Positions 1,504-54,624 of a stretch of DNA of 64,000 nucleotides are shown here, piece by piece. The notes under the pieces are model-generated. The model had not been told where the DNA came from. It saw nothing but the letters and a program-made list of their open reading frames with translations, and ran no database searches. Position numbers and translations under genes: made by a program. The stretch comes from Escherichia phage W70, in sequence record OP778610. One strand, written 5' to 3'. Position 1 is the first letter of the stretch. Each line of letters begins with the position of its first letter.

Positions 1504-3036
1504 TTGAAGAAGAAGAATAAAGGTCGCAACACACAGGTTCGTAAAGCGACGAGCGAAGAATTAAACGTTGCTCGTTTACGAATGAGTGAGCAAGGTACTT
1601 TTGCTTTAGCTAAGGTTCAGGTGGAAACTGAACGTATGAAAGCTGAAGAAATTAAATGGCCTCAATTGATCGGTACGGTTGAAGCTATGAAACAAGATGC
1701 TACGGTAGCGACTGGTCTTGATATGCTTTACACTTTCGTAGAGAAAGCATTCAAGGACTTCAAAGTAATCCCTGGCAAATCTAAAGAGTCTCAAGACGCA
1801 GCAGAGTTCATTACCTTCTGCCTTCGTAACATGGAAGGTCAAACCCTGCGTCAATTTGCCCGTGACGCTGCCACATTTAACGAATACGGCATCTCTGTAG
1901 TTGAGAAGGTATATACTCAGATCCAGACTGGTGAATATGCAGGACGATTTAAGATTAAAAACCTTGCATTCCGTCCACAGGCTTCTCTGAGTCGTAAAAA
2001 CCCTCTCGTGTACAGCGATGATGGTTCTCGTGTTGTAGGTGTTAAGCAATCCCTTGATTCTTTCAAGAACTACACTGCCAGTCCTCTTGGCGCTTCTATT
2101 AGTGGCCTTATCGGCTCTCGTAAAGGCAATGACGTTGTAATCCCAGCAAACAAGCTGATGATCATGACTACTGGTGGTTCTTCTTCTCAAGCACTCGGCG
2201 TTTCCCCGTTGGTTGCTTGTTACCGACCTTGGCGTGAAAAGGTTCTTATTGAGAACCTCGAAGTTGTTGGTGCTACGAAAGACATGGGCGGCGTTATCGA
2301 ACTGAAGATTCCTTCTGCCATCCTTAACAAAGCTGCCATCGATCCTTCCAGCTACGAAGCAGAAATGGTTCAGGGTTTGATGATGGATGCTGCAAACGCC
2401 CACTCCGGTGAGCAATCTTTCTTTATGCTACCATCTGACGTTAAAGACAACTCACCTTTGTACTCAATGTCTCTGAAAGGCATTGATGGTATGGGTAAAC
2501 AGTACAGTACTCGTGACCTGATCAGTGATCGTAAAAAATCAATCCTTGATCGTCTGGGTGCGGGATTCCTGAACGTAGGTAATGATGCTTCTGGTTCATA
2601 CAACCTGTCGGAATCAAAACAAACTATCCATACTCAATTTGTACAACGTGTTAATGAAATTATCGCTGAAGCACTGAATGAAAACCTGCTCCCTCAGCTT
2701 CTGGCTCTGAACGGTATTCGTCTGGCAGAAAAAGAAATGCCATTCGTTAAATTTGGTCAGATCGTTGATACAGACATGGAAGGTTTCTCTAAAGCGGTTC
2801 AGCGTATGGGTGCTGTCGGCTACTTGCCTAAGACACCGGAAGTTATTAATCGCATTCTTGATGTTCTTGGAATCGATTATCAAGTTGGTGAAGATATTTC
2901 GCAAGAAGAACTTATGCTTCTCCTTGGAGATAATACCAGTCGTTCTGGCGATGGCTTTGCACAGGGGACTTCTGGAAACGGGACTGCAAAGATTAGCGGA
3001 ACAAGAGATAATTCAGTTTCTAATTTAGAAAATTGA
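1504..3036 (+). CDS. portal protein (putative)
   Basis: 510 aa ORF immediately downstream of the terminase, size and position typical of portal. Track start is a TTG; an ATG at about 1582 is an alternative start. Confidence 0.5.
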   Translation: MKKKNKGRNTQVRKATSEELNVARLRMSEQGTFALAKVQVETERMKAEEIKWPQLIGTVEAMKQDATVATGLDMLYTFVEKAFKDFKVIPGKSKESQDAAEFITFCLRNMEGQTLRQFARDAATFNEYGISVVEKVYTQIQTGEYAGRFKIKNLAFRPQASLSRKNPLVYSDDGSRVVGVKQSLDSFKNYTASPLGASISGLIGSRKGNDVVIPANKLMIMTTGGSSSQALGVSPLVACYRPWREKVLIENLEVVGATKDMGGVIELKIPSAILNKAAIDPSSYEAEMVQGLMMDAANAHSGEQSFFMLPSDVKDNSPLYSMSLKGIDGMGKQYSTRDLISDRKKSILDRLGAGFLNVGNDASGSYNLSESKQTIHTQFVQRVNEIIAEALNENLLPQLLALNGIRLAEKEMPFVKFGQIVDTDMEGFSKAVQRMGAVGYLPKTPEVINRILDVLGIDYQVGEDISQEELMLLLGDNTSRSGDGFAQGTSGNGTAKISGTRDNSVSNLEN

Positions 3037-3057
3037 TCTTTGATTTAAATCAGACTC

Positions 3058-3675
3058 TTGCAAAACGAATCGTTCAGTGTTAAAATAAATATCACGGGAG
3101 CAATGATGGAAAACATTACTATCTCCGACCTTCCTTCACAAACCTATCTGTCCCGAATCCAAAAGGGACGGGCTGTGAAAAAGGCCAATGAGCTACTTAA
3201 ACAGGGCTTCAATAAAGAGGCTTCTATTTCTGGAGCCATTGGCTCCGTTCTTGTCCAAAAAGCTGCACAGAAAGAAGAGATGATTTCTTACGAGATCATT
3301 TACGAACCTGATACGCCGGATGCTCATGGACAATGGATGAGCAAAGAGACACTAGTTAAAGCACAACAAGATTTCAAGAAAGCTCAAGAAATCGGTGCGG
3401 TAACTGAGAACTTGTACCACTTGGTTGATACCGAAGCATTCAAGATCGTAGATCATTGGATTCAGCCAGAAATTGATGTAACTGTCACACAAACAGGAGA
3501 AATCATAAAAGCAGGATCATGGGTAGCAAAGGTTCAATATTCACCTGAAGCATGGGAGTTAAAGAAAGCTGGCATCGTCGGTGGATTATCTCTTCAGTGC
3601 GGTGGTATGTTGAATGAGGAAACAAATGAGCTATCCGATCTTGATTTCAGTATCGAATTGGAAGAGGAAGAATAA
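3058..3675 (+). CDS. head morphogenesis protein (function unknown; position of a prohead protease)
   Basis: 205 aa ORF between portal and scaffold; acidic EEEE C-terminus; no catalytic motif recognised. Start uncertain (ATG at about 3103 possible). Confidence 0.35.
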   Translation: MQNESFSVKINITGAMMENITISDLPSQTYLSRIQKGRAVKKANELLKQGFNKEASISGAIGSVLVQKAAQKEEMISYEIIYEPDTPDAHGQWMSKETLVKAQQDFKKAQEIGAVTENLYHLVDTEAFKIVDHWIQPEIDVTVTQTGEIIKAGSWVAKVQYSPEAWELKKAGIVGGLSLQCGGMLNEETNELSDLDFSIELEEEE

Positions 3676-4769
3676 TGATTAAGACCCTTATAGAGAAAGG
3701 TCGCCAGATTAAATCTCGCGGAATTGCTCTAACTCACCGAGATCAAGGCTACAGTGCGAATAACCGCCACGTAAGCCTCCTCACTAAATCTGACATTGAC
3801 CCTAGCAAACTTACGGTTGATGTTATCAAAGCCCTTGAGCAAGTTCAAGTAACTATCAGTATGGAAGAGTTTTTACGTCGCTTCTTCCACATGTATTATG
3901 ATGATGCTGAGTTACTTACTAAGCTGCTGGGCTTCACAACTACCTTCGAAGACGAATATGCTGATAAAGATCCTGAAGACTTGGATTCTTATACGGCTGA
4001 TTACATCCGTCGTCATCAAGAATATCTCGATGAGAAGCTTGAAACAATCACTATCATCAAGAAAGCAAAAGAAGGTGCTGACCTTTCTCTCGTTGAACGC
4101 TTCGAGTTAATTAAGACTCGCAAGCAGTTTGAAGACGGATGTAAAGAATTGGGCCTTGACTTTGGTGACAATTCAGAATTATGCAAACCAGAAACTGGTG
4201 AAGTAGTTAAATCAGCTACTAAACCTGAACCTGTAAGCTCCGCTGGAGCGACCACAACCATCAAGGAGACTCCTGTGGAAAAAGAAGTAGATGTAACCAA
4301 GTCCCAACAATTCATTGATCTGATGAAAGCTAATGAAGCGTTGATGGCTCAGGTTGAAGGTATGAAAGAAACCTTCACCGCTGCTCAAGAAATCGTTAAA
4401 GCTCAGGCTGTTGCAAAACGTGAAGTTGCCTTGAACAAAGCTGCAAGTTTTGGTTTTGTTGCTGATGACCAACGTGAAGCTGTTGCTGACCTGATCGAAG
4501 ACCCAGCTAAAGCATCTGTTGTTGCTGTGCTGGAAAAAGCTGCTGCTGCTCTTAAAGAGAAAGACGAAGCTCTCGTCGCTAAAGATGCAGAAATCGAAGA
4601 GATCAAAAAATCCTTCGCTGACGGCAAAGAAGTAGGTGCTGATGGTCAACTGACTGAAGTTGCTAAAGGCTCTGAAGACGCTCAGGCTCGTTTGAACCGA
4701 GTAATCGCAGAACGTGCAGCAGAGATCGCTAAGGCTGCTAACGGCAATGCTGAATTTATTAACGCCTAA
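3675..4769 (+). CDS. scaffolding protein (putative)
   Basis: 364 aa, Ala/Glu/Lys-rich predicted coiled-coil C-terminal half, directly upstream of decoration and capsid genes; start overlaps previous stop (TAATG). Confidence 0.45.
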   Translation: MIKTLIEKGRQIKSRGIALTHRDQGYSANNRHVSLLTKSDIDPSKLTVDVIKALEQVQVTISMEEFLRRFFHMYYDDAELLTKLLGFTTTFEDEYADKDPEDLDSYTADYIRRHQEYLDEKLETITIIKKAKEGADLSLVERFELIKTRKQFEDGCKELGLDFGDNSELCKPETGEVVKSATKPEPVSSAGATTTIKETPVEKEVDVTKSQQFIDLMKANEALMAQVEGMKETFTAAQEIVKAQAVAKREVALNKAASFGFVADDQREAVADLIEDPAKASVVAVLEKAAAALKEKDEALVAKDAEIEEIKKSFADGKEVGADGQLTEVAKGSEDAQARLNRVIAERAAEIAKAANGNAEFINA

Positions 4770-41848: not shown

Positions 41849-42148
41849 CTAGTGGCACGCCCCCCAGTTCATCCCTGTGAGGTATTCACCTGTTATGTGG
41901 ACAGGAGATTTCATCATTCGTGCTGCTTGCTCTACACAACGAACAACCATCTCTCCAACTGGACAATACATGATCGTGTAGATTCCATTCTCATCAGGAT
42001 CACACTTAAACTTCCCTTCTTTCACACAATGACCATCCAAGATCATTTTCTTAGCCAAGCAAGCTTCTACAAATTTCTTCGCGTCAGCTTCGTTGTCAAA
42101 GGTCCAGGTCTTCTTGAACTTGTGCGGTACTTCAAGCTGGTATTCATC
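41849..42148 (-). CDS. DNA polymerase (family A), exon 2
   Basis: Begins DEYQLEV (completing motif C HDE with the His that ends exon 1) and ends TGMNWGACH, resembling the T7 gp5 C-terminus as recalled. The Met at 42199 in the ORF track lies inside the intron. Confidence 0.75.
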   Translation of the reverse strand, partial: DEYQLEVPHKFKKTWTFDNEADAKKFVEACLAKKMILDGHCVKEGKFKCDPDENGIYTIMYCPVGEMVVRCVEQAARMMKSPVHITGEYLTGMNWGACH

Positions 42149-42920
42149 CAAAAGTTTAACGAGGTCGTTACTCTCGCCCACATCATTACATGTTGCCATA
42201 CGTTTTCACATATGGATCGGACTATATCACCATCCTTTTCAGGATGCTCCCCATTTCGACGGCACTTGCTCGCCTACGCCTCTCGGCTAGTCTCTGAACG
42301 TTAGGACCATGTGTAGTCACAAGAGATGTGTGTCCAGTTTTTACGGATTTTTATGGACCTTACCACGTTGTAAGGATAACCCATATCCCGAATCTGTGCA
42401 CTTCCATAACCTTGCCCCAGGAAGTTGCAAATCTCTCTAACCTCTTCTTCGGTAACTATACTTCTGGCGTTATCAACCCCTGTTGCTGAACGACATTTAT
42501 CAGCAAAGGTTTTCTTGATATTTCCACCACGAGTTGTCCATTGGAGGTTTGAATAGTGGTTATTCCTTTTGTCAGGCCACTTATGATCAACCTCCGGCAA
42601 ACCTTCAGGGTTTGGTACAAAACACTCTGCCACCAAAACGTGAACAGCCTTTGTAGTCGTCCTTTTGTTGAGATACAGACTTACAATAAGATACCCACGT
42701 CCATTATCAACTGCCGCCATTGGTTTCCCTCGACGACCTATAATGGTCCCGTCTTCATAAACCTTGTAACCGAAATAATCTTTATATTCCACATGATCCT
42801 CTTCGCTGCTGATTAACATAGTCTCATACTAACTCACACTTGAATTAATATCAACCTTAGTCTTCCAGCAATTAAAGGAGTTTTCGATGTGAGTTACCTC
42901 ACAAAGCCACAATGTTACTT
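42149..42920 (-). mobile_element. group I intron with HNH homing endonuclease, in DNA polymerase motif C
   Basis: About 772 nt between ...YYH and DEYQLEV; - strand carries R element GUUCAGAGACUA (42288-42299) and S-like GAUAUAGUCC (42219-42228); 5-prime exon ends in U, intron ends in G. Confidence 0.75.
42301..42819 (-). CDS. HNH homing endonuclease (intron-encoded)
   Basis: 172 aa; AVHVLVAECFVPNPEGLPEVDHKWPDKRNNHYSNLQW is typical of phage HNH endonucleases; sits wholly inside the intron upstream of the R element. Confidence 0.8.
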   Translation of the reverse strand: MLISSEEDHVEYKDYFGYKVYEDGTIIGRRGKPMAAVDNGRGYLIVSLYLNKRTTTKAVHVLVAECFVPNPEGLPEVDHKWPDKRNNHYSNLQWTTRGGNIKKTFADKCRSATGVDNARSIVTEEEVREICNFLGQGYGSAQIRDMGYPYNVVRSIKIRKNWTHISCDYTWS

Positions 42921-45251
42921 ATGGTAATAGATAATACGTCTAACGCCTTCATCATACCAACCTTTCTTAACCAACTGCCAGTGCAGGAGGATACCCACCA
43001 AGTCAAACAGTGCAGCACCACCATTCTGCTGATAAGCATTAAGCAATGAGTGTTTGGAACGAGTGTAGATCTTACGTCCATCAAGACCGTAGATGAATCG
43101 CTTACCGTTAGCTTCCCAAAACTTCTCTAGTGCTTCTTTACGACCTTTCAAGCCGATGTTGCTATCCCAGAATGCGTCGATTACTGCCTGGGCCTTCTCA
43201 AGAGTGATCCCCAGCATTGATGCAATCTTCGCTGCCTGTGCCCCGTACATAATTCCGTATGTCACACCTTTACCTTCACCACGAGAAACCTTCTTCCCTG
43301 CCGCTTTGGTATACGCTTCTGCGTTTCGGGAGTGAGCATCTCCAGATTCCATGATACGAAGATAAGCACCGCCATCGAAATCATAAGCGCCCCATGCTGC
43401 GATCATACCTTCTAGGTTTGAACCGTCGATACCTACCTGATATTTACCCTCAGAGGCTCTGAATAGTTCACGCATCTCTTTACCGAGAAGAACTTTCTCA
43501 TCCGGCTTAGGTACGTTTGCTACGATCGTATGCTTACGACGACCTGTGTTAGTTATTCCACTATAACGGGCCGGAAGTTTACCGTCAACTCGTAGACGTG
43601 GATGGTTAAGCCATCCGGTATCAACCTTCTCTTCTTTCAGCGGGTCAAGAACAGATCGTCGGTTACGTAAAGACAGCCATTTAACAATCTGTTTAGCCAT
43701 TTCACCATCTACTCGCTCAAGGTTAGGGCAAAGACCCTGTTGATCCTTAAGTTGTGGAGATGTAGGTAATGCACGAGCTTTCTTACGGAAAAACTTGAAC
43801 ATCTTTTCTTTATCTGACCACTGCTTAGGTGTGATCGCCAAGCTTTTCAGAATCAGATCACGATACTCCGTCTGATCCAAATCTTCAATGTATTGACGAA
43901 CAATCAGATCAACTTCACTATCGGGACGTTGTTTCTTGAACTGATCTTTAGTTGCATCCTTTGTACGCCAAATTGTTGGGACCCATCCTGCATCACGGAT
44001 CAGGAACTTCTTAACGTCGTCCTGGTTACCAATACGCATCGGAATCATAATGTCCGGCATCTTTTGTTCTTTGATATCCATCAAAGCACGAGCCATATCT
44101 TCCGGCGGCAAAGGAACAAGCCCTTGCTGCTTAACGTTTTGTGCACGGATAAAATCACCCATTTTGGATTCGTCCTCTACACCGTGTTCAACACAATACT
44201 TGATCGCGGCAGCAGTAAGAGATCCGTCAGCCTTAAACGGCTTACTTGGTGCACCTTTAAATTCCAAGGCTTCCCAATTGATATTATAACCTAACTTCTC
44301 TAACCATTTCCAACCTGTACCGGAAAGAGATCCATCACCCTTGAAAGGTTTGGATGGGAATGTCGGTTGTGCTGATTTCGACATCTCTTTCTTCGGCAAC
44401 TTAGGTTCAACCTCTAACTCAATGTCAGTCATCATCTTATCGATACGATCACGAAGCTTGAGTGCTTTTTCTTCATCAAATGAAACACCCTGAATTTCTT
44501 GCTCAATCATCAGGTAGTCAGTCAACATACCTCGACGCAGGGCATTCTTCCAGTTGATCATTTTATACTTCTTCTGATCTTTGTCTGTTTCATCCTTAAA
44601 CATGAAGCGTTTATCATCCGGCATGGATTCACAGGAGATCTCTTTCATCAGAGCATCCCACACCATTTCGTTGATAATTACGTCTTCAATAATACGATCG
44701 CAATACTTCCAAAGTGGAAGGCCACGCCAATCTTCAATCGCCACTTTCTGGTTAGCTACTCGCATACCCCAAGCTTCAAGCCCGTGTGGCCCTACAGGCT
44801 TCATTTTACCTGTGACGGGGTTCTTTACCATCTCAGGACAACCGCGAGGCAGAGGGCGATCTGGATACAATGTACGGGACATTGAAAGTGTATCGAAGAT
44901 GGTTACTTGTTTACCATTGATCGTCCCCATGCAACCAGGGTCTGCAAACATATCGTAAGTTGTTCCTAGCATCTTCTTAAACAACTGGAGGTCATAGCCG
45001 AAGATGTTGTGGATAGCAACTGCTTTAGGCTCGGTAACGAACCATTCGTTTAATTCTTCAAGGGTGCGGATCTTGAAGTTTTTACCTTTAGATTGGATAA
45101 ATTTAACAGCTTGATCGTAACCTTCTCGCTGTGGATCAAGAAAGATGTTCCAGTTATCTTTTTTGTACTCTTTAAACAAGATGCAGTGGATTAGATCAAC
45201 TTCTGTCAACAGACCATTAGCTTCCGCATCTCCAATAAATAAGCCTTTCAT
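42921..45251 (-). CDS. DNA polymerase (family A), exon 1
   Basis: N-terminal exonuclease motif (FIGDAEANGL), motif A-like GIDGSNLEG, motif B RGEGKGVTYGIMYGA; the track ORF terminates at an in-intron stop just after YYH. Confidence 0.85.
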
Positions 45252-45290
45252 TTTTTCTCCTTCTTTTAAACTCCAACTAGACTAAAACAA

Positions 45291-45325
45291 AGCCTAGCCG
45301 GAGGTATGACCCTTCGGCTAGGTTA
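45291..45325 (-). terminator. hairpin (attenuator or terminator) upstream of the polymerase
   Basis: cctagccg / cggctagg stem with a 13-nt loop followed by T-rich sequence on the - strand. Confidence 0.35.
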
Positions 45326-45417
45326 TCAAAAGTGTCGGTATCCTTCATCAACAAAATAAAGTATTACCAAGATGGCAAACACGACACCCAAGAATATTAA
45401 TCCTAGTGAAGTTGGCA

Positions 45418-45693
45418 TCAGTCTTCTATTACCTCAAATTCATCATTAAAAGCTACGATAGTTTCACCGTAGCCCATGTTTAATCGGGCAGTTGTAGGTT
45501 TGCCATTCCTAGATAGATAGTACACCCTCGCTTCGTAAATGTCACCAACTTTTACACCGTAAGCCTGTAGGTCTTTGTTATTGATATCTTTATTTTCAGC
45601 ATTGATTATTCGAACACTGCTGATCTCTGAGTATACAGAATTATCTTTCATCAGTATTTTTCCTCTGGACGGAAAACTCCACGGCAAGCCCAC
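45418..45693 (-). CDS. hypothetical protein
   Basis: 91 aa ORF. Confidence 0.45.
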   Translation of the reverse strand: MGLPWSFPSRGKILMKDNSVYSEISSVRIINAENKDINNKDLQAYGVKVGDIYEARVYYLSRNGKPTTARLNMGYGETIVAFNDEFEVIED

Positions 45694-45941
45694 ATACTTG
45701 CTTCTTTGAGGCGATCTTTAGCCTTAGATAAGCAATCAGATGCAAAAAGCACGGAATCTAGATCCCCTTCGGGAATCGAAGAGTCATTAGCCAGTCGATT
45801 ATATTCCTCAATAATCTCGTCTTCTAATGCTTTTAAAATAAGACCTAAACGAATTTCAGCATCTTTAATGGCATTCACCTTACCGATTTTTTCATCGGTG
45901 TGTGGTTTGTAGCCCTTAATGTCATCAATAGCCATTACCAA
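45651..45941 (-). CDS. hypothetical protein
   Basis: 96 aa ORF. Confidence 0.45.
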   Translation of the reverse strand: MVMAIDDIKGYKPHTDEKIGKVNAIKDAEIRLGLILKALEDEIIEEYNRLANDSSIPEGDLDSVLFASDCLSKAKDRLKEASMWACRGVFRPEEKY

Positions 45942-46423
45942 TCCTCTTCTGTTTGTTCATACTCGGAAGGGGTGATGAAGTAATTCTGCCCCCGCTTGCA
46001 CTGGTTGAAAGTCCCAACATACCAAGTACCGATATCCATGTTGATGAAAGTTTCTTCTTGAACAAAGATCAGATCAGTAAGATTATTGTCTGATCGTTGG
46101 GTCGCTAACAAAATATGCTCAAAATCTGCTAATGTTATGTTGTAACAGAAACCATCTTCGTCCTCCATAACTGCAACAACAGAGCTACGCCCTTGGGTGA
46201 ATTGACGAAACTGTAAACGTAAATGACGATGTTCATGTTCATTCGTCTTCACCTTTTTCCGATTTTCGAAATATTCTTCGGAATAATTTGGATGCTTTAA
46301 TTTCAGCTTTTCGATCTCTTCGGTAGAAAGAGCATCCTTATCCCAACCAGTAAACCATTTACCGTTATCATTAAATACCGCAGGGTATTTACGCTTACTC
46401 AAATCTTTAAACATTTGAATCAT
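45935..46423 (-). CDS. hypothetical protein
   Basis: 162 aa ORF. Confidence 0.5.
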   Translation of the reverse strand: MIQMFKDLSKRKYPAVFNDNGKWFTGWDKDALSTEEIEKLKLKHPNYSEEYFENRKKVKTNEHEHRHLRLQFRQFTQGRSSVVAVMEDEDGFCYNITLADFEHILLATQRSDNNLTDLIFVQEETFINMDIGTWYVGTFNQCKRGQNYFITPSEYEQTEEDW

Positions 46424-46793
46424 CTCCTTCAGCTAGGCTACGAATATACTTGAAAATTTCTTCATGATCATTACCAAATGCAACATATCCCTTTTCAGCA
46501 TCAAGTCCATAATTATGCTCTATTTTCTCTAAAAAGCAATTTCCGTAAGTAATTTTTTCAACCAGGGGATCGGATTCTGAAAAACCCAACCCAAAAGCTT
46601 TCCAGTGCTCACGTTTAAGCTCCACGTATTCCCACGGTTTATCTCCATCGTGGAATAACACAAGGGTGTCTTGATCTTTCTTTTCTACATTGACATGACC
46701 ATAAAATCCACTGGGCGATTTGTTAAATTTCATAATCTTCTCCGTAAATATCTTTAATTTTTGAACTGAGGTATCCAGGATCGCAGCCATCAT
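46407..46793 (-). CDS. hypothetical protein
   Basis: 128 aa ORF. Confidence 0.5.
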   Translation of the reverse strand: MMAAILDTSVQKLKIFTEKIMKFNKSPSGFYGHVNVEKKDQDTLVLFHDGDKPWEYVELKREHWKAFGLGFSESDPLVEKITYGNCFLEKIEHNYGLDAEKGYVAFGNDHEEIFKYIRSLAEGDDSNV

Positions 46794-47055
46794 ACCACAC
46801 TTCTACGAAAACCTTTTGGGAATCTTTGATGATCTTTGCCCCGACTCTTTCAATCCCCTTGAAGAAAGATTGTAAGATGTAATCATCTAACACGTTTACT
46901 CCATAAGCATCGTGGAGGGATTTTTCATCGTGAACATACACAACCATCTTACCATCATACGTAACTTGAATGCAAGGGTCATCTTCCCAAGTAATAGCCG
47001 GAGAATCCGGCTCAAGCTTTGCAATAACACCAATAGTCAATCGGTTGTCACTCAC
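46723..47055 (-). CDS. hypothetical protein
   Basis: 110 aa ORF; start likely at an internal Met given the overlap. Confidence 0.45.
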   Translation of the reverse strand: MSDNRLTIGVIAKLEPDSPAITWEDDPCIQVTYDGKMVVYVHDEKSLHDAYGVNVLDDYILQSFFKGIERVGAKIIKDSQKVFVEVWYDGCDPGYLSSKIKDIYGEDYEI

Positions 47056-48269
47056 TCTTTACCCCCTGCGATGCGTAACATTTGGATAGTTTTCTCCAGT
47101 TCTTTACGAGGTTTGGCAACTAAACGACGTTCGTGTCGCTTCAGGAAGCCTTCTAAGAACTCTAACGGTTTAAAGGATAACACTTCCTGTACTGATTCGT
47201 CAACAGCATACTCTTTCTGGACCATACGATAAACCGGATTTTTTACAGTTACAGGAGTATAACCCTTACTGATCGCCATTTGGGTAACAACACGCTTCTT
47301 GCCATCGGTCCATGAGTCATCGATCGGGAAAGAATCTTTACCGTATTTTTCAGAGAATAACTTAACTGCTGTTTTTGTCAAGTCATCCTGATCTTCTTGT
47401 GTTCGACTTTGACCCCAATAATAACCACCAGAGGTCTTAGCACGACGTTCCGAGAACAAAGCAAGGTCATCGTACTGCTCAAGAGCTAAACGCGCCAGAA
47501 GCTCGATATCGTCGCTTTCTGACAGCAGTCGGTTTGCTTCGTACTTAACTTCAAAAGTATTTGCACTATCACGATCACGGTCAAGGGTGAAAGCTTCTGG
47601 CTTGAAGTCGTAATCGAATTTAAAATTACCTGGAACACGAGTAACGAACAGTCCATTTACAAACAGGTTGCAGTCACCGCCTGTGATAGATCCATCCTCT
47701 TCTTCATTTTGGTATTCGTCCGCAGCATTATACAGTTTAGTATAAGCTTTGCCGCGATCATTCTGAATAACGACTGTACGTTCAGTGGTTGGCGCATAGT
47801 TATTCATAATTTCAGACATAGCACAATGAGGGATGTTTTCAATGATCACAGTTACAGTATTTGAATCACGGCCTGACAAAGCCTTTTCATGGATATCTAC
47901 CGCCAAAATATTCTGTTCGTATACTGTATCATAAACCATATTTGGAATCCAAAGATCATTACCATTTTCGATAACAATGTCTGCACCTTCACGAACAAGC
48001 ACCAGAAGACCTACTTTCAGACCTTCACCAAACTTACCGATCTTGCTGTCATCATCACGTTTGGTTGAAACACCCATCAAAAGGCCGGAAACGGGAACAA
48101 CACCGCCACGAGAGATGATTGTGATCTTACCTTGATTACTATCATCTTTACTAAAATAAATATTGAAATCTTCTGTATCGATAGCATTTTGCATTAGTTC
48201 ACGAGCACCTTGCCACCATGACCAGTGACTGACGTAATTTTCAGTGATGCTCAATTTAATCTGTTTCAT
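47052..48269 (-). CDS. GHKL-type ATPase-like protein
   Basis: 405 aa; N-box-like ELMQNAIDT at residues about 24-32 and G2-box-like GKFGEGLKVG about 50 residues later; no clear DxGxG box. Confidence 0.4.
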   Translation of the reverse strand: MKQIKLSITENYVSHWSWWQGARELMQNAIDTEDFNIYFSKDDSNQGKITIISRGGVVPVSGLLMGVSTKRDDDSKIGKFGEGLKVGLLVLVREGADIVIENGNDLWIPNMVYDTVYEQNILAVDIHEKALSGRDSNTVTVIIENIPHCAMSEIMNNYAPTTERTVVIQNDRGKAYTKLYNAADEYQNEEEDGSITGGDCNLFVNGLFVTRVPGNFKFDYDFKPEAFTLDRDRDSANTFEVKYEANRLLSESDDIELLARLALEQYDDLALFSERRAKTSGGYYWGQSRTQEDQDDLTKTAVKLFSEKYGKDSFPIDDSWTDGKKRVVTQMAISKGYTPVTVKNPVYRMVQKEYAVDESVQEVLSFKPLEFLEGFLKRHERRLVAKPRKELEKTIQMLRIAGGKE

Positions 48270-48281
48270 TTATTTGCCCTC

Positions 48282-48998
48282 TTATTTGTTGTATTGATAA
48301 ATTGCTTCAGCCAAGCCCCGTGGGGTTAATGACCGGATCATCTTAGTTCTTGCTGACTTACCACCCAACTTATTCTGCTGATCTGACCAACCAGGTGCAA
48401 CAGGAACCGGAGAGGTTTTTGGAATTATAAACCCATTCCCTGTCCAAAGTCCAGTCTTTTTAGGATAAGCATCCCGTGGTTTAATGTACTGAGGAAAATA
48501 AGGGTTAACATCATTTACCGGAAGATAACCACCATATTCCCAAGGGTTGAAATATACCGTAGGCTTTCGCCATTGTCCAGCTAAAACACTAACGGGGTTC
48601 TCGATCATGTAAGGACAATCAAAAACAAATTCCGCAAGCCAAGCTGCAATCTTTGCAGTTCTTACCGCCTTGATCTGGAAGAAAGGATCTTTTGCTTTCT
48701 TTGATGCAAAGTGACGCGAACCACTGACAGCCATATCAGTACATGGAGGGTAGGCAAGGATCAGGTCCGGTGATGGCAATCCTAAGTTCTCTACATTCTC
48801 CATCCATTCAATATCGATAAAAGCGTTAACGTAAGTGATGTTGGGATGAATTTCCTTTACACCTTCATAATCCCCGTGATCAGCATCGTCATAGTTGAAG
48901 CAGTAGCATTTGTGCCCTGCTTTTGCCCAAGGAAGAACATCAATACCTGAACCAGAAAAGAGACTCCAGATAATCTTTTTATTCATCGTAGCATCCAA
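48282..48998 (-). CDS. C5-cytosine methyltransferase-like protein (short, atypical)
   Basis: 238 aa; motif I-like LFSGSGI, motif IV-like PPCTDMAVSG (Cys kept, Gln to Thr), motif VI-like IENPVS; no obvious target-recognition domain. Confidence 0.45.
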   Translation of the reverse strand: MDATMNKKIIWSLFSGSGIDVLPWAKAGHKCYCFNYDDADHGDYEGVKEIHPNITYVNAFIDIEWMENVENLGLPSPDLILAYPPCTDMAVSGSRHFASKKAKDPFFQIKAVRTAKIAAWLAEFVFDCPYMIENPVSVLAGQWRKPTVYFNPWEYGGYLPVNDVNPYFPQYIKPRDAYPKKTGLWTGNGFIIPKTSPVPVAPGWSDQQNKLGGKSARTKMIRSLTPRGLAEAIYQYNK

Positions 48999-49291
48999 AT
49001 AGTGGTTAATTTACAAATACACCAGAAAATCCCGATCAGTGTAGCCAGAGTAATAACACAAGTCAATGCTATAGGTAAGAATATTGTCATAATCACTGCA
49101 AAGACTGAAATACCTACGCTTGCAATAAGATCCGGTACGAAATAGTGAAATGGATCTCTTGCCTTTTTAATGTTGTCCCATGTTATTACTACGGAGCTAA
49201 GGACGAGCCAGAATAAAAAGTACAAAATGCAAGGAAATAAAGTCATGTGTGACTTAACCATATCAAACCACATGTTGTAGAATTCAATCAT
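48983..49291 (-). CDS. integral membrane protein
   Basis: 102 aa with three hydrophobic helices; overlaps the methyltransferase-like gene start. Confidence 0.5.
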   Translation of the reverse strand: MIEFYNMWFDMVKSHMTLFPCILYFLFWLVLSSVVITWDNIKKARDPFHYFVPDLIASVGISVFAVIMTIFLPIALTCVITLATLIGIFWCICKLTTIWMLR

Positions 49292-49611
49292 TCAGTTTTC
49301 CTCGGTACAGATGCAATAACAGCCTTTTCGACGAGACATACAATAAATCTCCCAATCCCTGCCAAAAGGAGAGCAAAGACTGTAAAAGGCAACCCATAAA
49401 TAAGAACCAAAATCATCAATCCAAAACAAGCGGAAAACAGGACTTCTGTGCCTAGCCACATTTTGGAGTAATTGATATAATTATGTCGCAATTTTAAAAA
49501 CAGTCCAGCAATAGAGCCTACAGAAAATATACCAATCAACCAAGGTGCAGTTACAAATGAACGACTGAACCCTTCCCAAAAAACAAAAACATTAATGATT
49601 GCTTCGATCAT
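49288..49611 (-). CDS. integral membrane protein
   Basis: 107 aa with three to four hydrophobic helices; ATGA overlap. Confidence 0.5.
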   Translation of the reverse strand: MIEAIINVFVFWEGFSRSFVTAPWLIGIFSVGSIAGLFLKLRHNYINYSKMWLGTEVLFSACFGLMILVLIYGLPFTVFALLLAGIGRFIVCLVEKAVIASVPRKTE

Positions 49612-49862
49612 AAACCATACCTCGCTTCATATAAGAATTCATCAAGATCTTTACTGTCGTCGGAACCTTCTACTGTCAATGGCATCAGGTGTTCTTTGAA
49701 ATAATAGCAAAGACTGCCGGAACTCGTTTCTACTAAACAGGTTGTTTTACAAACCATTTTAACCTTTACCGATAGTCCCGCATCTTCGTGACTGTGGACC
49801 ATTGCAAGACAACCATCATAAAGCTTATCTTCGTAAGGTAAGCAAGGATCTGGATTTTTCAT
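49608..49862 (-). CDS. hypothetical protein
   Basis: 84 aa ORF. Confidence 0.45.
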   Translation of the reverse strand: MKNPDPCLPYEDKLYDGCLAMVHSHEDAGLSVKVKMVCKTTCLVETSSGSLCYYFKEHLMPLTVEGSDDSKDLDEFLYEARYGL

Positions 49863-50155
49863 CGTGAACTTTCCTCCTCTGCATGTTTACGTACCCAAGC
49901 TACACGGGCCGGATTGAGGTGTTTCTTAGTGTCTTTATGATATGTATACCGACCTTTATCAAAAGGGAACTCGCAGCACAGTCCAGCGTCGGTAAACTGT
50001 TGTTGCATCTCTTCAGACAAATCAAAATTATAGTCCGGCCAATGGTCCAGTGAGTAACATAACCCCTTACGACGATTAAACGGATCGCGGTCAGGTGCGC
50101 CTTCGTCAAGCCACGCGGCATAGGCTTTATAGAATGCTTTAAGTTGCTCGCTCAT
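49859..50155 (-). CDS. hypothetical protein, paralogue of 40147-40524
   Basis: 98 aa; shares the FY..Y..WLD.GAP...GLC motifs with the 40147-40524 product. Confidence 0.5.
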   Translation of the reverse strand: MSEQLKAFYKAYAAWLDEGAPDRDPFNRRKGLCYSLDHWPDYNFDLSEEMQQQFTDAGLCCEFPFDKGRYTYHKDTKKHLNPARVAWVRKHAEEESSR

Positions 50156-50551
50156 TTATTTCTCCTCTGCATATGCAATCTTAGTCATGTAGTCAATACA
50201 ATCATATTGAACATTGTGGCTATTAAAAACAGCCTTGCCTTTGTAAATAACTTCCCAATAATTAATACTTTCAATTTCGGAAAGGTAGGCAACACACTCC
50301 CCCTTCGGATTAATAAGTTCAACCTGCTCAGTTTCTCGTAATTTCCAACCAGTAGGCAACTGAACAACTTGTTCCTTAAAAATCACAATATTGTCACGGT
50401 AACCCGTTGCCCTTTTAAATGCTCGGAGTAATTCTTTGTATTCACGATATTTCACATAAAGGCCGTCCTCTGATTTTTCCATACGGGCTTCATTGATATT
50501 GCAATTACCATCCATATCTCCAACCAGGTCATAACGATATACAGGTTTCAT
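50156..50551 (-). CDS. hypothetical protein
   Basis: 131 aa ORF. Confidence 0.5.
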   Translation of the reverse strand: MKPVYRYDLVGDMDGNCNINEARMEKSEDGLYVKYREYKELLRAFKRATGYRDNIVIFKEQVVQLPTGWKLRETEQVELINPKGECVAYLSEIESINYWEVIYKGKAVFNSHNVQYDCIDYMTKIAYAEEK

Positions 50552-50760
50552 TTTTTAACTTTCTCCTTTTTCTCAGGTTTTACATCGCAAACTTTTTGTT
50601 GATAACTGATCGGTGTTACATAACGCCACGTCTTTTTAAGGTTCTCAACGAGGATTCTCATTTGTTCCTCATCAGCACCCCAACCTGCGGTATGTGCTAT
50701 TTCATCAACACTCATTTGGCATTTAACGTACCATCTTGTAACTGTCTTTGATTGTATCAT
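50548..50760 (-). CDS. hypothetical small protein
   Basis: 70 aa ORF. Confidence 0.4.
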   Translation of the reverse strand: MIQSKTVTRWYVKCQMSVDEIAHTAGWGADEEQMRILVENLKKTWRYVTPISYQQKVCDVKPEKKEKVKK

Positions 50761-50786
50761 TTGTGTTTCCTTGAGGTCAAGAAATT

Positions 50787-51083
50787 TTATTTAATACCAA
50801 GTTCTTTTGCACTGTAAATATCGTTACCTTCATAACCTTTGTAGTAGATCAGAATATCTTTGACAATCTCTCCTGTCGGTCCGCTCCGGCGGGTACGTGG
50901 TCGTGGTGAGTTTACCAAATAAACTTCACCACGAGTATTTATTTTTGTTGTACGGTGACCTTCGACGAAGGTCAATGTTGTATATGCAGGAACCTTGACA
51001 AGAACCTCTACCTGATCGCCAGCAGTATTCTGTTGTTCATTTGCCATATCGTCTTTAACAACAGTGGTCATAAGTTTGGTCAT
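50787..51083 (-). CDS. hypothetical protein
   Basis: 98 aa ORF. Confidence 0.45.
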   Translation of the reverse strand: MTKLMTTVVKDDMANEQQNTAGDQVEVLVKVPAYTTLTFVEGHRTTKINTRGEVYLVNSPRPRTRRSGPTGEIVKDILIYYKGYEGNDIYSAKELGIK

Positions 51084-51085
51084 TT

Positions 51086-51352
51086 TTATTCTCCTTTGTT
51101 CAGTGTGGATACGAATTCGATATAAGATTCTGCATTTCGTTTATGATAAATCTGAGGATAGCTGTCGGTTACTTTGCCGTATTTGATGTATCGCTCAAGC
51201 ATACCGACAACACCACCACCAATGGAATGCACAACAACACCTTCTTCACCAACAAAGGTAACCACTTCTACGAATGGACTGTTATCATAAGAACGATTTA
51301 CAATCAGATCGCCGACTTCAAATTCGATTTTATCATTTTGTGAGTAGTGCAT
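51086..51352 (-). CDS. hypothetical protein
   Basis: 88 aa ORF; first gene downstream of the 51383-51411 promoter. Confidence 0.45.
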   Translation of the reverse strand: MHYSQNDKIEFEVGDLIVNRSYDNSPFVEVVTFVGEEGVVVHSIGGGVVGMLERYIKYGKVTDSYPQIYHKRNAESYIEFVSTLNKGE

Positions 51353-51382
51353 TTGTTTCTCCTTTCTGTTTGGTATGGGGGA

Positions 51383-51411
51383 AGTATAGGGGAGTTTAGG
51401 AGGGGTGTCAA
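51383..51411 (-). promoter_or_regulatory. sigma70-like promoter (TTGACA, 17 nt, TATACT)
   Basis: Near-consensus -35 and -10 with 17-nt spacer on the - strand, immediately after the helicase terminator and before SD aaaggag. Confidence 0.5.
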
Positions 51412-51412
51412 T

Positions 51413-51440
51413 AGAAAAACCGCCCGAAGGCGGTTTATTT
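51413..51440 (-). terminator. rho-independent terminator after the primase-helicase
   Basis: aaaccgcc-ttcg-ggcggttt hairpin plus T-run on the - strand. Confidence 0.65.
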
Positions 51441-51449
51441 TGAAAAATA

Positions 51450-51962
51450 TCAGAAAGGTGCTTCGTCGTCGAAATCTACATCTTCAACTTCCGGTACATC
51501 AGGAATGTCACCTGCGGATTCAACGATACTCTGTTGTTCCCACGTAGGTTCCTCTGAAGGTTGGTCCATTTCTTCCATAACCTTCTTGATCTCTTCCTCT
51601 TGCTCACGCAGGAAGTTATCATCCGGCTCAGGAATATCTTCCTCTTTAATATCTGAACGAGTGAGATCACTGTTTTGTTCAGACAGAGGTTGAATCTCTG
51701 CTGCTTTAGGCTTAAAGTCTGGAGAACGATGATCATCTTCTGGATGAGCGGCATACCACTCACGAAGAGTTTCATAAGGACTCTCTAAGAAGCCCTCTGG
51801 CGGTTCCAGATAATCACCCGTATCAATGTCATAGAACACAGGGAATTTACCAGCACGACCGTGTTTACGGTCATCCAGAATAACAAAGTAAGAAGTGTTA
51901 CGTTGTTTCATCGGGAGTTCTGGATCTTTGTTACGTTCAATTCCCCACATATAGTAAGTATT
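51450..51962 (-). CDS. primase-helicase (T7 gp4-like), exon 3
   Basis: Begins about NTYYMWGIERN (resembling T7 LSDTIIALERN as recalled); ends with acidic tail ...EDVDFDDEAPF with terminal Phe. The track's N-terminal 64 residues are intron sequence. Confidence 0.7.
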   Translation of the reverse strand, partial: NTYYMWGIERNKDPELPMKQRNTSYFVILDDRKHGRAGKFPVFYDIDTGDYLEPPEGFLESPYETLREWYAAHPEDDHRSPDFKPKAAEIQPLSEQNSDLTRSDIKEEDIPEPDDNFLREQEEEIKKVMEEMDQPSEEPTWEQQSIVESAGDIPDVPEVEDVDFDDEAPF

Positions 51963-52808
51963 CTTTATGTCCAGGCTACTCGCTAGGTAGCCTCGGTGTG
52001 CTAAGACACCCGCCCATACTTTCATACAGGAACAGACTATATCATCACCTTTCGGTGCTCTCCACTTCGGAACCGCTTGGTCCCTACGCCTTTCGGCTAG
52101 TCGTTGAAGATTTTGCATATTCAGGATACATGGTCCAAGTATACAGATTGGCAATTTCTTTCCAATCCCTTTTGCTTCGGATGTTTAGAACAACCGCCCT
52201 TTTAACTTGAATGCCACTACTTTCGGCTATTCTCTTTGCAGTCCATCCCTCTGAAAGTAACTGGCATATCTTATGCACGTCGTTTTCAGAAAGTCCGGTA
52301 CTGTAATGATCTTGCCCTCTAATTGGTAATTTGTTTTCTATCGAGTGTCGAAGATTTTCCTCTTCTGTTACCCACTCAAGGTTATCTTTATGATTGTTCA
52401 ACTTATTACCGTCTTTATGATTTACCTCTGGTAAATTTAAAGGGTTTGGTATATAAGCCTTCGCGACCATCCTGTGAACATACTCAGGCTTCCGCTTACC
52501 ATTTAAGATAACATTAACAACAAAATACCCTGTACCCTTACTTAATGAATTTTTAAGGAATCTTCCTGAAAATTCACTAAAAACTTGTCCATCTTCAGTG
52601 ATAAAGTATGGACTGTTTTCTTCTATTCTTACCATAAGTCCCCTCTTTCATGGGACCAAGATCTAGAATATGCAACTTTCCTGCTGATTACCCAATCCTG
52701 TACCTTTTTAAACATTCACGCTTGCCTTTGCAGACTACGTTGTAGTGTTACAGGCTCTAAGGGCTTCCCAGCAATTCAAAGAGTTTTAGATGCGCTCTAC
52801 TGCTGTTA
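51963..52808 (-). mobile_element. group I intron with HNH homing endonuclease, in helicase motif H4
   Basis: About 846 nt; R-like CUUCAACGACUAGCC (about 52093-52107) and S-like GAUAUAGUCUG (about 52033-52043) on the - strand; 5-prime exon ends CGU, intron ends in G; 3-prime boundary good to roughly +/-20 nt. Confidence 0.7.
52084..52635 (-). CDS. HNH homing endonuclease (intron-encoded)
   Basis: 183 aa; YVHRMVAKAYIPNPLNLPEVNHKDGNKLNNHKDNLEW; similar to the polymerase-intron HNH. Confidence 0.8.
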   Translation of the reverse strand: MVRIEENSPYFITEDGQVFSEFSGRFLKNSLSKGTGYFVVNVILNGKRKPEYVHRMVAKAYIPNPLNLPEVNHKDGNKLNNHKDNLEWVTEEENLRHSIENKLPIRGQDHYSTGLSENDVHKICQLLSEGWTAKRIAESSGIQVKRAVVLNIRSKRDWKEIANLYTWTMYPEYAKSSTTSRKA

Positions 52809-53402
52809 ACGCATCATTGCACGGCTACCAGCAAACTGCGCTGACTGGACTTGACCACCAAATTCATGAGGCTTGCCAGATTCAGGCTTATTAAGGTGAC
52901 AGAAGCAATAATAAGTAAAGCCAAGCTCTTTTGCCAGTTTGGAGATCTCATCCGAGAATCGTTCCAGTTCCTGGTTAGCTTCAGAAGCACTCATACCTTG
53001 CACAAGACGAGTGATCGGGTCAATAAAGATATCTTCACAACCTTCTACGATCACTGCGTGACGGATAGCACCTTTCAGTTCATCCCATACTGCACGACCA
53101 TAGTTGTTATAATAGATAACACTATCACCAACTTCATCAGTAGCTTTGATCAGTTCTTCTTGCTTAAAGTATCCACGTTGACCTTCAAAAACTTCATTGC
53201 CCCAAATGTCACGGTAAGTTCCATCTTCTTGAGGAATCATTACCTTTTCGGCATTAACAAAGTCTTTATGATAACGCTTACCTGCGATCTTCTTACAAGT
53301 GATCTCGTTCTCTTCTTCAAACTTAAACACCGCAGCTTTTGACTTTTCAATACCCGTGATGTGTTCAACCATTTGGTTAAGAAGTTCAGACTTGCCCATT
53401 TT
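52809..53402 (-). CDS. primase-helicase (T7 gp4-like), exon 2
   Basis: Begins KMGKSELL (rest of Walker A), contains CFCHLNKPESGKPHEFGG and ends FAGSRAMMR, resembling T7 gp4 CHLKNPDKGKAHEEG...RGSGALRQ as recalled. Confidence 0.75.
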
Positions 53403-53688
53403 CACCGTTATGTTCGACAGGGTTCGCTACTCCCTGCCCGTTCTCTTACGAACTGCTACATGTCCCCATGCAGACCAGACTATATCTTCAACCTGTTTCC
53501 AGGTGCTATGCACTTCGGACCGCTTGGCCCTACTCTACTCGATTCAAGAGTCTAGCTCTTGTCTTTCGATAGTCGTTGCTCCTTCCTTTTTCAAGGCTTG
53601 GATCAGGATTACGTGTTCTACGCTTCCCCTGAGTTCACATAGTATTTAGTCGAGGCATCTCTGCCAAGGCTGGCTAGACTTAATGTTT
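53403..53688 (-). ncRNA. ORF-less group I intron in the helicase Walker A codons
   Basis: 286 nt between ...FIGAG and KMGKS; - strand contains P/Q-like CAGGGGAAG and AAUCCUGAUCC, R-like CAACGACUAUCG and S-like AAGAUAUAGUCU in the canonical order; 5-prime exon ends in U, intron ends in G. Confidence 0.7.
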
Positions 53689-54624
53689 ACCAGCACCGAT
53701 GAAGTAACCTTCACCTGGACGACGACCCAAGGTAAGCTTGGTCATGGTGGGCCAAGGGAACTTCTTGCCGAGTTTAGGGATCTCATGTGCCTTTTCGCGG
53801 AACTGTGAATAAGTCGAGAAACCATCAGGCACATATTCTTTTGGCTTCATTGCAGCCCAAAACAACTGATCAGAAAGACCTTTGTTATACATATCGCAAG
53901 GGTCCATATCTTCTGGAATATCCACGACCTTCATTTGTGGAATTACAGAGTATACCGCTGCAACTGCATCTTTACCTTTCATGATCCCTTTGGCCTTCTC
54001 TGCTTCTGTCGCACGGTCAGCATCGAAAGCTACGATAATCTCTTCAAACTTACTCAGAAGCTTATAGTTATTCTTCTGTGATAAGTTTTGCACGGCATTG
54101 GATGTACCGTTAGAGATAGATACAACTGTGAAGTTTGGTTTACGAGTGGAACCATCCTTCGGTTTGTACTTCTCTGTCAATACCTGCCACAAGATTGCAG
54201 CATCGTATTCACCTTCAGTGATAAAGATCATACGTTTGGAAGACTTGTTTGCACCTTCCAGACCAAACATATCACAGGCTACAGATTGGAAACCGATAGT
54301 TGTAAAGTGCCCTTTCTGTTGCTTAGGGATCGTAAGATCACGCTTTTTAAAACCTACAACCTTACCTTCCAATGTGTACGGAAAATAATGTGCTTCTGGA
54401 GTCATACCGTCTTTAGCTGACAACTTGGTACGAATACCAAATCGTTTAGCTGTCTTTTCGTCGATACCACGCTCAGGGATACTTTTACACGGGTAAGTCA
54501 ATACATCTTCAACTGTTTCTTCCACACGAGACACACCGCCGCCATAATTACGTGCCACCGAAGCTTTAGGGTTTTTATGTCCAAACTTATAACCGCCAAA
54601 CAAACTTTCGCCAATAGTGCTCAT
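53689..54624 (-). CDS. primase-helicase (T7 gp4-like), exon 1
   Basis: TOPRIM-like motifs (FITEGEYDAAIL, VAFDADRATEAEKA), then helicase N-terminus ending ...RRPGEGYFIGAG; SD AAGGAG plus ATG at 54624; no Cys4 zinc finger before the RNA polymerase domain. Confidence 0.8.

Follow-up and report, generated by a model that had tools for sequence, protein, structure and literature searches.

Phage T4 carries several group I introns of subgroup IA2 in genes of nucleotide and DNA metabolism (td, nrdB and sunY), and these introns are patchily distributed among the T-even phages, with co-conversion of the flanking exons. The endonuclease open reading frame (ORF) of the T-even introns is intact in some alleles and lost in others, and the endonuclease families of T4 are mainly of the GIY-YIG type. 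In cyanophage S-PM2, an ORF-less intron in psbA is mobilized by the neighboring free-standing endonuclease F-CphI, a process known as "collaborative homing". F-CphI appears under this name in PMC6083498. IA2 introns with HNH endonuclease genes are known from the polymerase genes of phages SPO1 (I-HmuI), SP82 (I-HmuII), Bastille (I-BasI), the T7-like phages phiI/W31 (I-TslI) and Pf-WMP3 (I-PfoP3I) (PMC3428280). For CB7_50, the HNH-carrying group I intron in the polymerase gene of Pectobacterium phage CB7 (Certrevirus, Vequintavirinae), splicing was shown by reverse-transcription PCR and Sanger sequencing (PMC7344957). We analyzed a window of 64,000 nucleotides from Escherichia phage W70 (sequence record OP778610), the type phage of the proposed genus Septuagintavirus (PMC11370258). 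Within positions 41849-54624 of this window, a range bounded by the stop codon of DNA polymerase exon 2 and by the start codon of the primase-helicase gene, we found three group I introns, all on the minus strand. One is located in the gene for a family A DNA polymerase (the pol intron) and two are located in the gene for a T7 gp4-like primase-helicase (the hel1 intron at site 1, and the hel2 intron). We consider it very likely that they are three separate, mobile, IA2-like group I introns. HNH-carrying IA2 introns in phage polymerase genes are already textbook material, and what is new here is the introns for this genus. A literature search found no paper on introns in a Vequintavirinae primase-helicase; it did retrieve CB7, whose primase-helicase is intron-free.

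The region is 95-97% identical to the Escherichia phages A73, A5-4, LTH01, A7_1 and UPEC06, all Vequintavirinae, and the limits of the introns were set to the base by alignment with the intron-free alleles of these phages. All genes discussed are on the minus strand, and all three introns lie between codons, in phase 0. Exon 1 of the DNA polymerase (42921-45251, from the ORF list; assigned to family A by PF00476 on an intact homologue) ends in ...RRIIYYH, with CAU as its last codon. It is followed by the pol intron (42149-42920, 772 nt), whose absence from A7_1 and UPEC06 is base-exact, and by exon 2 (41849-42148), which begins with DEYQLEVP and supplies the Asp-Glu pair of motif C; the junction between the two exons follows from A7_1 and UPEC06, whose alleles are intron-free. 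Exon 1 of the primase-helicase (53689-54624) comprises the Toprim primase part and the start of the helicase, and ends in ...GEGYFIGAG, with GGU as its last codon. The hel1 intron (53406-53688, 283 nt) is ORF-less and is missing, again to the exact base, from A73 and LTH01. Exon 2 (52809-53405) reads from VKMGKSELL..., the remainder of Walker A, to ...FAGSRAMMR. The hel2 intron (51963-52808, 846 nt), absent from all five close relatives, separates it from exon 3 (51450-51962), which begins with NTYYMWGIERNKD, the remainder of motif H4, and ends in the acidic tail ...DFDDEAPF. The two insertion sites in the primase-helicase gene are 597 bp apart.

We scanned the whole window with the Rfam group I model RF00028, for which the gathering score is 50 bits. 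At the gathering threshold, one of the three introns was recovered, namely hel1 (53456-53721; 70.4 bits, E 8e-16). An E-value scan was needed for the two ORF-carrying introns, which scored below the gathering score: pol at 42197-42930 (39.7 bits, E 1.2e-6) and hel2 at 52013-52301 (25 bits, E 0.008-0.026). Both of these sub-threshold matches enclose an ORF of about 500 nt in P6. The same E-value scan revealed no fourth group I intron in the 64-kb window. An initial annotation, made from the sequence alone, had proposed three introns in two replisome genes, and the Rfam matches and the intron-free alleles confirm it. It had also named intron-minus alleles in related phages as a check; these exist in the five sister phages and they corroborate the sites.

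When the exons were joined in silico, an 876-residue polymerase and a 681-residue primase-helicase resulted. Both proteins aligned end to end and without gaps to the uninterrupted homologues of UPEC06, A7_1, A73 and LTH01, at 98-99% identity, which is consistent with splicing of the W70 introns. The insertion sites were placed on functional motifs by alignment to the solved T7 proteins. The pol intron separates the residue aligned to His653 of T7 DNA polymerase from those aligned to Asp654-Glu655, within the HDE of motif C (YYH|DE). The hel1 intron is within the Walker A loop (GAG|VKMGKS), aligned to GSGMGKS of T7 gp4, and the hel2 intron follows the residue aligned to Arg493 of T7 gp4, in motif H4 (GSRAMMR|NTYYMWGIERN). 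The earlier statement that the insertions sit in the most conserved codons of their host genes is a fair one, judged by these three motifs. Motif H4 of the helicases is a DNA-binding and coupling motif and is not strictly catalytic. Inteins and group II introns were considered and rejected, as each interruption has in-frame stops and a group I core and none has an ORF of the reverse-transcriptase type. From the fold and the exact junctions we infer that each intron RNA folds into a group I core, excises itself and rejoins the phase-0 codons.

The helices P1, P3, P4, P5, P6, P7, P7.1, P7.2, P8, P9, P9.1 and P9.2 could be placed in each of the introns. In all three, the 5' exon ends in U, a U.G pair is present at the 5' splice site, the exon end pairs with a guide sequence and the intron has a terminal G. 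In the pol intron, P1 is formed by the exon CCAU and the intron AA with the internal guide UUGUGG (42907-42912), P7 consists of GACUA (42288-42292) with UAGUC (42220-42224), and the omega G is at 42149. In the hel1 intron, the exon GCUGGU pairs with the internal guide GCCAGC (53669-53674) and the omega G is at 53406; the hairpin CCUU-GAAA-AAGG (53585-53596) forms P6a, and the core helices, inclusive of the P3/P7 pseudoknot, were found by inspection and by the Rfam alignment. In the hel2 intron, the exon GAUGCGU pairs with the internal guide GCGCAUC (52789-52795), the omega G is at 51963, and P6 is made of UUGCAUAUUC (52666-52675) with GAAUAUGCAA (52113-52122). Introns of subgroup IA2 have the extra helices P7.1 and P7.2 between P7 and P3', joined by G-U-A (PMC3428280). 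This segment reads GCCGAGAGGC-GUA-GGCGAGCAAGUGCC in pol and GCCGAAAGGC-GUA-GGGACCAAGCGGUUCC in hel2, and in hel1 a long P7.1 is followed by GUAGAGUA and then by GGGCCAAGCGGUCC. By inspection for P7.1-GUA-P7.2, all three introns look like members of subgroup IA2.

The hel2 intron was tested further by covariation because its Rfam score is the weakest of the three. The set comprised seven sequences, W70 and six same-site metagenome orthologues, with the divergent L011 left out. The sequences started at the guide sequence; the exon and the variable P1 loop were trimmed off, the ORF was swapped for a GAAA loop, and the alignment was made with MAFFT. RNAalifold recovered the canonical helices from this alignment. 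With P7 added as a pseudoknot, the family has 16 helices in which 97.6% of the cells are paired. Compensatory changes were seen in 28 of the 78 pairs, compared to at most 5 when the partners were slid by 1-3 columns, and the observed covariation values were reached by none of 500 shuffles. P7 is invariant in this family, and P7.1 and P7.2 covary. Same-site orthologues of the pol intron are found in CR9, CB7, SSE121 and FV3 (four phages in three genera); compensatory changes in the 3' domain of this family affect 11 of 36 pairs, one of them in P7.

The CB7_50 intron has the same insertion point as the W70 pol intron (…IIYYH|DEYQ) and the same 5' end (AAGUAACAUUGUGGCUUUG…). The 3' ribozyme domain (42149-42297 in W70) is 95% identical between them; the polymerase exons of the Certrevirus relatives are about 77% identical. 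This likeness suggests either a recent transfer between genera or a very strong constraint. The two systems differ in the endonuclease ORF, which in CB7_50 encodes 127 amino acids and is only 31% identical over 100 residues to the HNH protein of the W70 pol intron, and in compensatory changes in P2. Furthermore, the polymerase gene of CB7 contains another intron besides this one, and the CB7 primase-helicase gene contains none. With the introns of SPO1, SP82, Bastille, phiI/W31 and Pf-WMP3, the W70 introns share the P7.1-GUA-P7.2 arrangement, an HNH ORF that starts in P6 and can enter the core, a stop at the intron start and, in the case of pol, a site in a part of a family A polymerase that is conserved and important for function. 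The differences are that those introns occupy at least three other polymerase sites, the one in Pf-WMP3 being in the fingers subdomain (PMC3428280), that they belong to other hosts and phage families, and that the activity of their enzymes was measured, whereas it is predicted for W70.

The P6 loop of the pol intron contains the ORF of a putative HNH homing endonuclease of 172 amino acids (42301-42819), identified by PF13392 and by homology to the hel2 protein. The corresponding ORF in the P6 loop of hel2 (52084-52635) encodes 183 amino acids and was identified by its PF13392 match and its same-site orthologues. The hel2 protein matches PF13392 (HNH_3, I-HmuI-like) with 34.5 bits, above the Pfam cut-off of 24.8 bits, and the pol protein reaches 23.9 bits (E 3e-5). 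The initial annotation had noted that the two HNH proteins resemble each other, and they are indeed homologous, with 32% identity over 160 residues (E 2e-29). Across the HNH proteins, identity is 31-45% between different sites and 45-85% among same-site orthologues. For the hel2 protein, the same-site orthologues in metagenome phages, drawn from the protein database and from contig look-ups, are 45-79% identical. A search of the IMG/VR viral contigs with this protein returned distant HNH proteins only (≤54% identity) and no same-site orthologue.

The P6 stem of the folded pol intron, AGGAUCAUG/CAUGGUCCU, pairs the start of the HNH gene, with its ribosome-binding site and AUG (42792-42800), with the last codons of the ORF (42303-42311), and has a predicted energy of -20 kcal/mol in a minimal construct. 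The ribosome-binding site GAGGGG of the hel2 HNH gene lies in a hairpin with GGUCCC (52620-52665). Sequestration of the ribosome-binding site in both introns would limit translation of the endonuclease from the folded intron RNA. At the other end of the genes, the last 13 codons of the hel2 HNH ORF (52084-52122) are encoded by the ribozyme core segments P6', P7 and P7.1, and about the last 19 codons of the HNH gene in the site-1 intron of A5-4 are likewise ribozyme core sequence (10984-11041 of L002, the A5-4 sequence). These core bases at the two 3' ends have a double role, in the protein and in the fold of the RNA.

The five sister phages differ in which of the three introns they carry. The pol intron is present in A73, A5-4, LTH01, CR9, CB7, SSE121 and FV3, and absent from A7_1 and UPEC06. 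The hel1 intron is present in A5-4, A7_1, UPEC06 and the metagenome contig L007, and absent from A73, LTH01 and CB7. The hel2 intron is present in the metagenome contigs L007, L009, L011 and L036-L039, and is lacking in CB7 as it is in all five sister phages. This is a polymorphism of presence and absence among phages that are 95-97% identical, with same-site orthologues in more distant genomes, as is expected of mobile (homing) introns. As in the td, nrdB and sunY introns of T4, there are several IA2-type introns per phage, a patchy distribution, and alleles with and without the endonuclease gene; the host genes, the endonuclease families and the lineage differ, and W70 has two introns at 597 bp from each other in a single gene. 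Across relatives with 95-97% identity in the exons, the pol intron is 99.9-100% identical; hel1 is 100% identical to the ribozyme of A5-4, and both introns are more conserved than the exons that flank them.

Synonymous differences are clustered beside each insertion site, and this is seen in the intron-minus alleles only. At the pol site, the intron-minus alleles differ at positions -4, -7, -10, -13, -19, -21 and -25, followed by no differences for 50 to >400 nt. The differences at the hel1 site are on both sides, and those at the hel2 site are at +3, +9, +12 and +21. The intron-plus alleles are clean for 48 to >400 nt upstream. Some intron-minus alleles are without the U that is required at -1, such as GGG at the hel1 site in A73 and CGA at the hel2 site in A7_1; in these alleles, conversion of the flank would have to accompany insertion. 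The clusters of substitutions in the flanks fit co-conversion of exon sequence with the intron. Along with the patchy distribution of the introns and their conservation relative to the exons, these clusters are indirect signs of cleavage of the intron-free allele near the insertion site.

Outside of the P6a loop, the hel1 intron of W70 is identical to the site-1 intron of A5-4; it differs from that of A7_1 by one base and is 91% identical to that of UPEC06. In these three phages the P6a loop holds 472 nt with the gene of a 165-residue HNH protein, and in W70 it holds 6 nt (UGAAAA). The presence of HNH-carrying site-1 introns in sister phages means that a cognate endonuclease exists in the population. 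The site-1 intron of L007 represents a third state, in which a ribozyme 78-84% identical to hel1 carries a different, NUMOD4-type HNH gene. L007 is a 149-kb contig with both helicase introns (2347-3197 and 3843-4662), and the C-terminus of its NUMOD4-type HNH protein resembles that of the W70 pol HNH protein. The pol ribozyme, too, bears unrelated HNH genes in W70 and CB7. As the same ribozyme is found with different HNH genes, or with none, the ribozyme and the endonuclease gene are exchangeable modules. Judged by the alignment, the ORF-less hel1 intron is an endonuclease-free allele of the HNH-carrying intron of A5-4, A7_1 and UPEC06; the difference between the alleles could reflect either gain or loss of the gene. 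The nesting of the ORF-less allele within the A5-4/A7_1 clade favors loss. A simple deletion from the A5-4 allele was rejected, as no single breakpoint yields the 6 nt and there are no flanking direct repeats.

The nearest relative of hel1 outside of this group is an intron in a helicase gene of Klebsiella phage Roth32, an unrelated phage of 46 kb. This intron is ORF-less, about 70% identical to hel1, and located in the Walker A motif of a DnaB-like helicase (approximately 1770-2040 of L041, the Roth32 sequence). An orthologous insertion was considered and rejected, since the Roth32 intron is about two codons nearer to GKT, is within a codon (GAGTGV^GKT) and is in another phase. It seems that the coding DNA of the P-loop has been repeatedly colonized by the hel1-type lineage of ribozymes.

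Our interpretation of the three elements as separate mobile introns entails the following steps. Excision would restore motif C (YYH|DE) in the polymerase, and the Walker A loop (GAG|VKMGKS) and motif H4 (AMMR|NTYY) in the primase-helicase. By analogy with the I-HmuI-type enzymes, the HNH proteins of pol and hel2 would nick or cut the intron-free allele in a mixed infection, and repair of the broken allele would copy the intron together with a short stretch of the flanking exon. The hel1 intron would most likely spread by the cognate HNH protein of a co-infecting sibling, by ordinary recombination, or by co-conversion with hel2, 597 bp away; recognition of its site by a resident, non-cognate HNH protein appears less likely than these routes. 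Several points weigh against the interpretation. Splicing and endonuclease activity in W70 are deduced from the sequence and from analogy. Two of the three Rfam scores (pol and hel2) are below the gathering score, and the pol HNH protein, at 23.9 bits, is under the Pfam cut-off of 24.8. The flank clusters could instead reflect selection for exon sequence that is compatible with splicing or resistant to cleavage. For hel1, the data can be read in both directions, as gain or as loss of the HNH gene: an ancestral state kept by recombination is favored by the junction, which is not that of a simple deletion, and by the short, GNRA-capped P6a hairpin that hel1 shares with Roth32, a distant ORF-less relative.

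One variant is that hel1 hitch-hikes with its neighbor. The HNH protein of hel2 would break the intron-free H4 site, and resection and repair running 597 bp upstream would copy hel1 as well, in a form of collaborative homing. The two sites are this close within one gene, the flanking exons show conversion-like tracts of tens to hundreds of nucleotides, and L007 carries both introns. However, site 1 is empty in L009, L037, L038 and L039, which have the hel2-type intron, and hel2 is lacking in A5-4, A7_1 and UPEC06, which have the site-1 intron. Their separate occurrence means that there is no tight linkage, and we regard hitch-hiking as an unlikely main route. The S-PM2 psbA intron is a precedent for the spread of an ORF-less phage intron by an endonuclease encoded elsewhere. 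There, the helper cuts the insertion site of the intron itself, whereas nothing in W70 suggests that a resident HNH protein recognizes the Walker A site. In a broader and equally tentative picture, the primase-helicase gene would be an arena of both collaborative and competitive homing, in which the endonuclease-free hel1 persists through co-conversion with the H4 intron or through the HNH protein of a sibling, and the HNH proteins act as weapons against the replisome genes of intron-free siblings. Damage to a competitor by an intron-borne HNH protein has been reported for PhiPA3 versus PhiKZ (discussed in PMC11878797). If this picture were true, the three states of site 1 (no HNH gene, a helix-turn-helix-type HNH gene and a NUMOD4-type HNH gene) would be snapshots of an ongoing exchange of modules.

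The initial annotation regarded the three introns as related, citing shared R/S core variants and similar 5' ends, and speculated that one of the resident HNH enzymes mobilizes the ORF-less intron. The corresponding alternative to three separate introns is that they are close relatives that spread within the genome, with hel1 mobilized in trans. The introns have in common the IA2-like plan (P7.1-GUA-P7.2, P9.1 and P9.2) and a similar loop motif in P9.2, GUA(G/A)CGA; pol and hel2 in addition both have the ORF in P6 and homologous enzymes of the HNH_3 family. In direct comparison, two stretches are similar between the pol and hel2 ribozymes, one of 103 nt (75% identity) and one of 25 nt (88%), and one of 63 nt (81%) is similar between hel1 and hel2, but pol and hel1 show no significant similarity. 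The core of hel1 has closer counterparts in introns of Klebsiella, Acinetobacter and Pseudomonas phages (70-74% identity over 69-84% of its length). Each of the three introns has same-site orthologues in other phages that are closer to it than its genome-mates. The hel2 HNH protein has more than 3,400 matches in the database at E≤1e-10, and many of those from unrelated sites are 38-53% identical to it, compared to 32% for the pol HNH protein.

The sequence features cited in favor of relatedness fared differently. The R/S elements (…CA(G/A)(A/C)GACUA and GAUAUAGUC(C/U)) differ little from the general consensus that Rfam gives for group I introns, and are no private variant of these three introns. 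The quoted 5' ends AAGUAACAUUG, AAACAUUAAG and UAACAGCAG are correct as the first bases of the respective introns, and in each of them a stop codon comes into frame no later than the third codon after the splice site (AAG UAA, AAA CAU UAA and UAA). A UAA at the intron start was also noted for the Pf-WMP3 intron (PMC3428280). Among the hel2 orthologues the 5' segment varies freely, with UGA, UAA or 17 open codons, and hence similar 5' ends are no mark of common descent. As for mobilization in trans, the three intron-free target sites have no shared recognition sequence, the 7-10 matches in 39 positions being at the level of chance, and a cognate HNH protein for hel1 exists in the sister phages; the proposal of a resident helper is thus not borne out. 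What remains of the claim of relatedness is a hint of kinship at the level of the family only. The comparison shows the three introns to be no recent copies of one another, each belonging to its own same-site lineage among the Vequintavirinae and related phages, and we consider spread within the genome to be quite improbable.

The last alternative, that the fragments are separate, functional extra polymerases and helicases with free-standing HNH genes between them and no splicing, is in keeping with the W70 paper, which counts three orthologous groups of polymerases and four of helicases/primases and suggests that replication strategies differ (PMC11370258), and with the unspliced HNH-split gene of phage Aeh1 (discussed in PMC7344957), but it is hardly credible, considering that the gaps are filled by group I cores with covariation, that the junctions restore gap-free, full-length proteins, that the CB7 orthologue splices (PMC7344957), and that the HDE triad, the P-loop and motif H4 are each broken internally, which leaves no fragment with a complete active site.

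The terms "intron", "homing" and "HNH" do not occur in the W70 paper, and the fragments were read there as additional polymerases and helicases (PMC11370258). Under our interpretation of three separate introns, the record for the genus is corrected to a single primase-helicase gene, whose set of introns varies from isolate to isolate. Similarly, the extra polymerases reduce to one polymerase gene, with intron-split exons and, in A5-4, an apparent frameshift. Exon 1 of the A5-4 polymerase (1536-3895 of L002, homologous to 42921-45251 of W70) is annotated as two coding sequences with a 4-nt overlap, which looks like a frameshift or a sequencing error. This split is the probable source of the "additional DNA polymerase only in A5-4" of the genus paper (PMC11370258). 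When annotation pipelines miss such introns, gene counts come out wrong, essential enzymes are broken up into "hypothetical proteins", and the statistics of orthologues and pangenomes of candidate therapeutic phages are distorted. The known workings of group I introns are unchanged by these findings, which entail no new mechanism. The five culturable sister phages, with different sets of introns and with one intron that occurs with and without its endonuclease gene, are a ready system for the study of homing, co-conversion and competition between phages in E. coli K-12.

Two further features of the region are of note. The primase-helicase ends (51450-51500) in an acidic tail with a C-terminal Phe, …DVDFDDEAPF, which we take to resemble the tail by which T7 gp4 binds the polymerase. 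Short segments of small ORFs between the two replisome genes, at 45658-45928, 46414-46723 and 49884-50159, are absent from some of the sister phages, a pattern of presence and absence that is unrelated to the introns.

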